NCBI RefSeq assembly: GCF_044324785.1
Contig: NZ_CP172132.1
Strand: one strand, 5' to 3'
Source of the DNA: Escherichia coli
GTDB taxonomy: Bacteria > Pseudomonadota > Gammaproteobacteria > Enterobacterales > Enterobacteriaceae
Length of the DNA stretch: 4,394 nucleotides
Below the pieces are notes generated by a model. It was not told the DNA's origin, searched no databases, and saw only the letters and a list, made by a program, of their open reading frames with translations. Each line of letters opens with the position of its first letter. The first letter of the stretch is position 1. The position numbers and the translations under genes were made by a program. Below, one piece after another: positions 1 through 1,083 of the stretch.

Positions 1-1083
1 TGCTTTATGGATCTGCTTCTTAAGATGTTTTCTGGCTTTCCGCATAAGCTTCTTATGACTGTGCGCACGGCATAAGACCATTTGAAATTTGGTCGTTTGC
101 GTGTGCATGTGGAGTTTGAAGCTGTGCGGGCGTCACTTTCGTCAGCGTTAAAGCTGACAAAGTGACGCTCGCACGTCTACTCAACGAACCCGCATAAACT
201 GGCTCTTCACGGGATGTTTTTTAACATTTGAAGAAGTGACCAGACGTGAGCGTTTTTTTCAGCCTCATTCTGTATCGTACTGACGCTTCTCCGGACTGAC
301 TTCCTGAAAGCTTAGTACCAACTGCAGAATCACATTGTTTTTTAAGGAGTTTAATGTAGTGAGTTACCGAATCGGCGATATATCTGACAGGCAGATATAT
401 CGGGGGCGACCTTTAAAGGTACAGTTAATTCTGCGGTCGGTTAGCCAAACCGACTTGACACCCCGCTAAACCTGAACTGATTGCGTTACCCTGACGCACA
501 GGTACTCACTCACCGAAGGAACGTAACTACAAACCGTGTCGTCAGGTTAAATGCAGAAGCACAGAAAACAGGAAAGATATCCTGGAAACCACAGGGGAAT
601 GAGCATGTAGGTATCTTTGGTGTTATCCGGATCGCCGTAAACCCTGCCATGAAGGACAGATTTTGACGGCGATCAGGATAAAAAATGCCATAATGATTGT
701 GGCCTTAAAATTATCGAAAACACGAATTTAGTTTTACATTTGTGCGCGTATGTACGCCTCAAAAAAAACAACCAACGAAAAACAACTCATCAACAAAATA
801 ATAACAAAACCTTCTTGTTTTGTGATTTATGTTGCACAGTTTGATTGTAAGTCACATCTGTGAAACGAAATTGTTTTGCGCTATGGCACCTGATGAGATA
901 AAAGAAAGAGGGGTGTTTCTGTATCGTAAAGTCTCTAGCCGGATAGCTTTTCATTAGTAGTACAGAAACATCCCCACTCATCAGGATTCAGGATCGATAG
1001 CCATTCGATATAAGACTGCTGATTGTGTCTTCGTTAAAATCTATCTTTTCACGTGAGAATTAAGAACTGTTAATTCATCGTTT

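Follow-up and report, generated by a model that had tools for sequence, protein, structure and literature searches.

A conserved hairpin in the non-coding block of a small Escherichia coli plasmid as a candidate recognition site of a MOB_M transfer origin

The captured block and its two hairpins

The stretch of DNA considered here (4,394 nucleotides from Escherichia coli, contig NZ_CP172132.1 of assembly GCF_044324785.1; hereafter the window) is a complete circular plasmid of the Rep_3 type, and its homology to an E. coli island wraps around the ends of the sequence (4372→545). Its sole recognisable protein, as judged with Pfam, is the Rep_3 initiator RepA; five other open reading frames (ORFs) gave no match to any Pfam family, and no relaxase was found in the window. 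The plasmid also carries a captured non-coding block of approximately 860 bp (4098→4394/1→557) that aligns as a single piece of 858 nt, with 91.8% identity, with a metagenomic locus (L041) of an integrative and conjugative element (ICE). Within the block the order is a promoter, the RNA motif STAXI, a weak terminator-like hairpin, a long imperfect hairpin named HP0, hairpin 1, a variable spacer and the RNA motif EFASI, which includes hairpin 2 (Table 1). Homology of the Rep_3 backbone to the plasmids pMTY9803_Col2 and pLH10-b-1-G begins at position 558, and 557/558 is therefore the junction with the captured block.

Table 1. Location of the features of the captured block and of the replication region in the window
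Feature	Position	Strand	Basis and remarks
σ70-type promoter	4055-4084	+	TTGATC 4055-4060, 18-nt spacer, TAGTAT 4079-4084; ends 13 nt before STAXI
STAXI RNA motif (RF01728)	4098-4271	+	Tandem pseudoknot units, UUCG loops
Weak terminator-like hairpin CCGGATTTCGTCCGG and T-rich tract	4345-4376	+	Terminator scan; after STAXI
HP0, long imperfect hairpin	47-125	+	RNAalifold and pair counts, 29 distinct homologues
Hairpin 1, complete	124-174		22 pairs, one bulge
Hairpin 1, conserved arms GCGTCACTT and AAGTGACGC	131-139, 160-168		Tip variable, compensated
Variable spacer	175-356	+	Between hairpin 1 and EFASI; alignments; at least two unrelated sequence types
EFASI RNA motif (RF02957)	357-510	+	cmscan, full-length match
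Hairpin 2	376-402		First inner helix of EFASI
Block 3' tail	511-557	+	Ends at the junction with the Rep_3 backbone
Rep_3 initiator (RepA)	2341-3033	-	Pfam
Iterons	3128-3215		Repeat search; adjoin the Rep_3 gene

The initial annotation, made from the sequence alone, had described a cluster of long perfect hairpins in non-coding DNA. The region is indeed non-coding, as no ORF is conserved in it, but the two hairpins are not similar to each other and represent two components of one module. The first was described as a 16-bp bulged stem, and this was confirmed: GCGTCACTTTCGTCAGC (130-146) pairs with GCTGACAAAGTGACGC (153-168), with C140 bulged and a GTTAAA loop. The stem is in fact longer than first noted, given that GTGCGG (124-129) pairs with TCGCAC (169-174), including a G129·T169 wobble. 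As DNA, hairpin 1 folds with -24.9 kcal/mol (z = -7.2, and none of 200 shuffles folded as well), and as RNA with -42.5 kcal/mol (z = -9.8); it folds equally well on both strands and therefore carries no strand information. The only hexamer that resembles a -35 box is CTGACA at 154-159, which is not conserved in other variants, and the stem has no -10 box.

The homologues of the block were collected from BLAST searches and one metagenome pattern scan, and amount to more than 60 loci. In an alignment of 29 distinct sequences, 94% of the cells of the HP0 and hairpin 1 structure are paired, versus 29-45% when the partners are slid, and compensatory changes were detected at nine pairs; these sequences represent about five lineages only, so the independent events are few. 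Within the arms of hairpin 1, a C:G pair is replaced by T:A in the plasmid pOC5aC, and the T·G intermediate is present in SGI-4. GCGTCAC-N4-34-GTGACGC was found a single time in each of 63 loci; while the arms are conserved, their spacing ranges between 6 and 22 nt, with covariation in the tip. With the exception of copies on IncK2/Z plasmids, hairpin 1 is kept, as a single copy, in every variant of the block, whereas STAXI may be present in several copies and HP0 is dispensable. Given that the arms are conserved, the spacing is free and the tip is compensated, hairpin 1 appears to be read by a protein, and not as an operator of fixed spacing.

Some details of this hairpin deserve description. 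In the left arm of all the enterobacterial variants, CACTT(T/G) is followed by an unpaired C or T (position 140 of the window), which is absent from the versions of Thiothrix and Burkholderiales; this bulged base is similar to the extrahelical bases found in attC sites of integrons. Apart from the window, most variants (L009, L062-L067, L072) have as tip a GC-GAA-GC or CC-GAA-GG mini-hairpin that matches d(GCGAAGC), a DNA mini-hairpin of unusual stability, when the gene-sense strand, and only that strand, is read. It was also observed that the HP0 types and the types of hairpin tip and spacer reassort between elements; L009, for instance, is of the window type upstream and of a different type (type C) downstream. 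The intervals in which these crossovers lie overlap at the 5' base of hairpin 1, at about 125-128 (window 117-139 region), and the crossovers could reflect recombination at a nick site or ordinary homologous exchange.

The second hairpin was likewise found as described, with an 11-bp perfect stem formed by CGATATATCTG (376-386) and CAGATATATCG (392-402) around an ACAGG loop; it folds as DNA with -9.8 kcal/mol (z = -4.5, none of 200 shuffles as good). The EFASI match to which it belongs scores 48.6 bits, 2.6 bits under the gathering score of 51.2 (E = 9.9e-8), with model positions 1-133 all matched, and its homologues in the same block score from 55.0 to 119.4 bits. Compared with the Rfam family, the copy in the window has its helix lengthened to 11 bp and lacks the downstream integrase gene. 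Pairing of this helix is kept with wholly different sequences across variants: to the arms of the window correspond CGATACCAC/GTGGTATCG in E. coli NC101, ACATCAG/CTGATGT in Pantoea, ACACTAC/GTAGTGT in SGI-4 and CGTCATC/GATGACG in type C. These variants were compared by eye from the alignment rows, given that MAFFT misplaced the type C hairpins. Several of the equivalents of hairpin 2 have GNRA loops (GUAA, GAAA). Conservation and covariation in relatives had been suggested as a check at the outset, and both hairpins turned out to be kept by compensatory changes in their homologues. In agreement with the statement that they are not classic terminators, both hairpins lack a following T-run on the two strands, and neither was listed by the terminator scan.

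Homologous loci and the MOB_M gene

In E. coli NC101 the block lies in an ICE of the SPI-7/ICEclc type inserted at tRNA-Phe, after traG_N, the last type IV secretion system (T4SS) gene. The gene directly 3' of the block encodes an "integrase domain-containing protein" with the Pfam domain Integrase_1 (PF12835), and is followed by small genes, a second STAXI, ArdC, DUF1281 and an N6-methylase. This synteny, i.e., T4SS/traG_N, block, Integrase_1 gene located 60-100 nt after EFASI, ArdC, DUF1281 and N6-methylase, was found in about 35 loci, among which the identity of the Integrase_1 protein ranges from 38% to 100%; the protein retains the full catalytic set of the tyrosine recombinases (R-K-H-R-H-Y). 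Rfam describes EFASI as a motif that follows STAXI at a distance of several hundred bases and precedes an integrase gene (PMC12370729). On the plasmid this distance is 480 nt, counted downstream from STAXI through the circular junction, and the integrase-like gene is absent from the window.

A recent preprint described MOB_M, a class of relaxases missed by widely used tools and akin to tyrosine recombinases; its members frequently bear the annotation integrase and are associated with ICEs that have a mating pair formation system of type G (MPF_G) (10.64898/2026.01.13.699239). SGI-4 is one of the SPI-7/ICEclc-type (MPF_G) elements, and the product of the gene downstream of the block in pSGI4 is WP_033567157.1, which is one of the seed MOB_M proteins of that study, and the assignment of the Integrase_1 gene to the relaxases is thus taken from the literature. 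The same holds for the label of origin of transfer (oriT): the preprint takes as the oriT region the first intergenic region upstream of the relaxase gene, and this is the position that the block occupies in the relaxase-bearing elements. It also reports that the TAI islands of E. coli O157, which have no relaxase, carry an oriT (oriT_rM6) that is 60% identical to the oriT of SGI-4, and the latter was recently localised (Neupane et al. 2025, cited in 10.64898/2026.01.13.699239). As far as searched, neither source links this region to STAXI and EFASI. Positions 11-545 of the window are 96% identical to an O157 TAI island, and in global alignments the block shows 67-68% identity to that of pSGI4, on whose record the homologue of hairpin 1 lies at about 2491-2543. 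Since BLAST similarity between loci of the window type and of the SGI-4 type is confined to the block, in its STAXI part, the correspondence between the block and the region named MOB_M oriT in these islands rests on this sole similarity and on the intergenic position. TAI islands thus resemble the plasmid in lacking a relaxase, and differ in that the carrier of the window is a 4.4-kb Rep_3 plasmid and not a genomic island.

The arms of hairpin 1 extend beyond the reach of STAXI and EFASI. Among seven loci with distant proteobacterial homologues of Integrase_1 and enough upstream sequence (Caballeronia zhejiangensis, with 199 nt upstream, was excluded), six have the arms GCGTCACT…AGTGACGC at 235-445 nt upstream of the gene, with loops of 6-22 nt; by simple arithmetic, about 1e-3 matches would be expected by chance in that much upstream sequence. 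The identity of these proteins ranges from 32 to 51% (two Salmonella plasmids with about 50%, Thiothrix and Burkholderia with 35%, Paraburkholderia and Caballeronia grimmiae with 32%). The exception is Enterobacter mori, which has a truncated gene and a different repeat, and a homologue from Bacillus (27%) has a different 15-bp repeat in a similar place. No Rfam match to STAXI or EFASI was found at the Thiothrix and Burkholderia loci. In Enterobacterales, EFASI is located between the hairpin 1 repeat and the relaxase gene, and is a component separate from hairpin 1.

The promoter-STAXI-hairpin 1-EFASI block was also detected, without a MOB_M gene, on five unrelated backbones of relaxase-less small plasmids: the Rep_3 backbone of the window, the inverted Rep_3 backbone of pMTY9803_Col2, a rolling-circle Rep_1 backbone, and those of two ColE1-type plasmids from Pantoea and Rahnella. 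The shortest variant, on the ColE1-type pOC5aC, consists of STAXI, 25 nt, hairpin 1 and EFASI, and has no HP0. The Rep_3 backbone itself (558-3553) behaves as a cassette whose end points, at 558 and 3553-3569, are the same in its relatives; in pMTY9803_Col2 it is inverted relative to the block, and in pLH10-b-1-G its partner is a MOBQ relaxase module. Where sister plasmids share the backbone (91% identity, junctions at 558 and 3553), the slot of the block is filled by the MOBQ module, and the block is missing from a 4,074-bp plasmid and from the MOBQ-bearing plasmids that share the rep region. When plasmids without a relaxase repeatedly retain a non-coding block in their "mobility slot", this is the signature of plasmids that travel with an oriT only. 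The prediction of MOB-suite was of no help in this respect: p3_64.1, a Rep_1 plasmid without relaxase, is called mobilizable, and pMTY9803_Col2, with the same block, non-mobilizable.

A side observation concerns p3_64.1, in which CCTTGTATTTATACTTAAGGGATAAC, upstream of the Rep_1 gene (L062 561-590), resembles CTTGATAATAAGGGTAAC, the nick region of pC194; the exact pC194 heptamer CTTGATA is absent from p3_64.1. If this motif is used, the displaced strand would be the one opposite to the structured strand of the block.

The proposed transfer origin and its alternatives

Taken together, we consider it probable that the plasmid is an oriT-only hitcher carrying a block derived from MPF_G ICEs, in which hairpin 1 would be the inverted repeat of a MOB_M oriT recognised by the relaxase. 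According to this proposal, an ICE resident in the same cell would provide in trans a MOB_M relaxase that would recognise the arms of hairpin 1, in the form of an extruded or single-stranded hairpin, and nick the DNA nearby; the plasmid strand would pass through the T4SS of the ICE, and the re-formed hairpin would mark the end of transfer. From the comparison of loci we infer the role of hairpin 1 as recognition site, as well as the nick position and the transferred strand. A DNA site for a MOB_M protein is favoured over an RNA helix because the arms reach the Betaproteobacteria at loci in which STAXI and EFASI were not detected, and STAXI is unlikely to be the nick region itself, because it is multi-copy in ICEs and always has its own promoter. 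Among the roles initially listed as candidates, a protein-recognition palindrome or a single-strand structure is the kind that best fits hairpin 1; hairpin 2 is a helix of EFASI. It is also conceivable, although we regard it as rather unlikely, that STAXI and EFASI are working parts of a composite MOB_M transfer origin and not free-standing small RNAs. The hairpin, with its conserved extrahelical base, would then lie within a promoter-driven structured region; the enzyme would read it in folded single-stranded form, as integron integrases read attC, and transcription or RNA folding would help to expose hairpin 1.

Several observations weigh against a transfer origin at hairpin 1. The oriT regions of the preprint were set by position and clustering, and not by assay (10.64898/2026.01.13.699239). 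The ICE of NC101 (L060/L061) carries, in addition to the MOB_M-type gene by the block, a gene with a MOBH TraI domain by the integrase, about 40 kb apart, and another oriT may be used with that TraI; this ICE thus has a pair of candidate relaxases and possibly also a pair of transfer origins, a situation reported for ICEclc. The initial annotation had counted the absence or disruption of the hairpins in close relatives, if without effect on plasmid maintenance, as an argument against a function, and hairpin 1 is indeed precisely deleted in the IncK2/Z copies L002, L003 and L019, in which an arm and the loop are gone and TGACGC remains. Nevertheless, these copies look like decaying remnants disrupted by insertion sequences (in L002, IS100 additionally splits the block), and on that account the deletion would be no argument against function. 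Finally, the block has features that resemble those of an RNA, i.e., the promoters of STAXI, the strand bias of HP0 and the UUCG and GNRA loops, and the hairpins could act as RNA helices.

The last point leads to the main rival explanation, a serious one although we judge it unlikely, in which the hairpins act only as RNA and the block is a structured non-coding transcript of about 0.9 kb that comprises STAXI, HP0, hairpin 1 and EFASI, while the oriT is located elsewhere. In ICEs this RNA would serve as leader to the relaxase/ArdC operon, and on plasmids it would act in trans; hairpin 1 would be a 22-bp helix recognised by a protein or by RNase III. In its favour, all STAXI copies examined are preceded by a conserved σ70 promoter that ends 13-15 nt before the motif, including the first and second copies in ICEs and those on plasmids; the + strand of HP0 is rich in G·U, with 114 G·T versus 8 A·C pairs, and the consensus fold reaches -57 kcal/mol on this strand versus -34 kcal/mol on the other. 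Moreover, Rfam classes both motifs as RNAs, and RNA of STAXI and EFASI was picked up by reverse transcription quantitative PCR in an E. coli strain (PMC12370729); a primer used in that work is identical to positions 388-407 of the window. However, the strand bias belongs to HP0 and not to hairpin 1, the arms of hairpin 1 remain beside the relaxase-like gene as far as the Betaproteobacteria, and a purely RNA-based role leaves unexplained the presence of the block on five relaxase-less backbones and its replacement by a MOBQ module. The two functions are compatible, and both may be true.

Given that the Integrase_1 protein has all the catalytic residues of a tyrosine recombinase, that genes of such enzymes usually adjoin their sites and that the crossovers between sequence types overlap at the base of hairpin 1, a core site for multimer resolution or ICE integration was also considered, with Integrase_1 as the recombinase at hairpin 1. 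This is improbable: the arms are 19-22 bp apart in most variants, versus 6-8 bp in known core sites, and their spacing is not fixed; the crossovers are equally explained by homologous exchange in a conserved flank; the literature places the protein among the relaxases and the region as oriT; and a plasmid would seldom benefit from a resolution site whose protein it does not encode. Equally hard to sustain, and if anything even more improbable, is the initial suggestion of single-strand initiation signals, here taken together with single-strand origins (of the G4, PriA or Frpo/ssoA type), that would prime the complementary strand in replication or after transfer. Stable hairpins without T-runs, tips that in several variants resemble d(GCGAAGC), and the occurrence of the block on Rep_1 plasmids, whose rolling-circle replication requires a single-strand origin, are in line with it, as is the fact that ICEBs1 and Tn916 have such elements (PMC5812530). 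Nonetheless, the block is oriented one way with respect to rep in the window and the other way in pMTY9803_Col2, it is missing from other plasmids that have this replicon, and in our reading the pC194-like motif of the Rep_1 plasmids puts the non-structured strand of the block in the displaced DNA; for replication, therefore, the suggestion is not supported. A closer match to a ColE1 primosome site lies elsewhere in the plasmid, at 3495-3562. Frpo and related initiation sites (Masai and Arai 1997; PMC11541004) resemble the block as structured non-coding DNA repeated before ssb and anti-restriction genes of conjugative elements, but they are hairpins of about 300 nt in which the template-strand stem holds a -35 and a -10 box, whereas hairpin 1 is too short for such a promoter, has no conserved -35/-10 pair, and the structured strand of the block is the gene-sense strand. 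That the hairpins are palindromes due to chance, or terminators with no function in themselves, would agree with the loss of hairpin 1 in some IncK2/Z copies without obvious consequence. Yet no shuffle folded as well as either hairpin, a perfect stem of at least 11 bp with a loop of 3-10 nt appeared in only 5 of 300 dinucleotide shuffles of the window, neither hairpin is followed by a T-run, and the compensatory changes that keep both across lineages already refute this explanation, which we regard as scarcely credible.

The organisation proposed for the MOB_M oriT has counterparts in other systems. SGI1 likewise has a tyrosine-recombinase-like relaxase, MpsA, and an oriT beside its gene with GC-rich inverted repeats, one of which is essential for transfer (PMC6414798). 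The likeness is organisational and no sequence similarity is claimed; the SGI1 oriT has 125 bp with repeats of 7-19 bp, and SGI1 is mobilised by IncA/C (MPF_F) plasmids and not by MPF_G ICEs. Classical oriTs, such as those of R1162/RSF1010, RP4, R388 and F, also have an inverted repeat conserved within the family near the relaxase gene, and this repeat is carried alone by relaxase-less hitcher plasmids; they differ in that they are processed by HUH relaxases, with the nick about 8 nt 3' of the repeat, and MOB_M enzymes belong to a different class. Concerning STAXI, of which the window has a clear member, its discoverers raised the possibility that it works in the form of single-stranded DNA close to DNA-handling genes (Weinberg et al. 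2010, PMC2864571); hairpin 1 lies outside the STAXI model.

If the proposal of a MOB_M oriT is correct, the plasmid would be a small oriT-only plasmid that depends on chromosomal MPF_G elements (SGI-4, the helper ICEs of TAI islands) and not on conjugative plasmids, a dependency missed by standard typing, as MOB-suite labels most such small plasmids non-mobilizable. It would also provide a concrete candidate for the site that MOB_M relaxases, a poorly known class, recognise, with an arm of 7-8 bp present from Enterobacterales to Burkholderiales. In addition, two orphan Rfam motifs unexplained since 2010 (STAXI) and 2017 (EFASI) are tied to the region upstream of MOB_M genes.

Further features of the block and the backbone

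The block has its own promoter before STAXI and is therefore probably transcribed on the + strand. In a promoter scan with a threshold of 9 of 12, the promoter of the window scores below the threshold; its register matches TTGAC(A/G)-17/18-(TG)nTAnnnT, found upstream of STAXI copies. The promoters of other copies (L006 at about 8660-8730 and 10830-10897; L009, L004 and L064-L066) show a near-consensus -35 box (TTGACA/TTGACG) and often an extended -10 box. No mention of this promoter was found in the papers on STAXI, as far as searched. The STAXI match scores 78.9 bits against a gathering score of 40.5 (cmscan with Rfam, E = 4.6e-16), so it belongs to the family; direct repeats of 61-62 nt (D4, D5) mark its tandem units. 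Homology to the second STAXI copy of L009 spans 4094-4342, and between copies the homology reaches about 4342. T-rich tracts are found at the equivalent place after STAXI in other variants, although their sequence is not conserved. HP0 has the conserved loop region GCATAAGnCCATyTGAAATyTGG, and is missing in the shortest variants of the block.

The variable spacer ends with a conserved AAGGAG (344-349), followed by an ATG-TAG start-stop (354-359); of these two elements, which border EFASI on its 5' side, the Pantoea and SGI-4 variants retain the Shine-Dalgarno-like AAGGAG and not the start-stop. Other candidates within the block were discarded. A minus-strand ORF (53-184), an ORF at 335-469 and the small ORFs annotated in NC101 and p3_64.1 have stop codons in other variants; Xer/dif-like core sites, considered for the GCATAA motifs at 42-60, 69-76 and 191-198, were rejected, as the palindrome at 41-60 is not conserved in sequences of the NC101 type; and a boxA resembling that of lambda nut (GGCTCTTCA, 202-210) is not conserved.

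In the backbone, positions 3495-3562 (68 nt) match the pBR322/ColE1 segment CTCTTCCGCTTCCTCGCTCACTGACTCGCTGCGCTCGGTCGTTCGGCTGCGGCGAGCGG with an identity of about 85%; a PriA/n' site for primosome assembly lies in that segment, just downstream of the ColE1 origin. The fold z-score of this region is only about -2. If the site is shared, this region, beside the iterons, would be the real candidate of the plasmid for single-strand initiation. A MITE-like element (miniature inverted-repeat transposable element) was observed at 1197-1509, with 51-nt terminal inverted repeats that are 92% complementary and a perfect 13-bp hairpin inside it (1248-1283); its terminal repeats are also present in pMTY9803_Col2 and pLH10-b-1-G. 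The motif CAGAAACGCG forms inverted pairs in the window (1356-1418 and 1934-1956) and is also found in the unrelated Rep_1 plasmid p3_64.1 (L062 about 1930-1965), so that it may be another cis site common to both plasmids.

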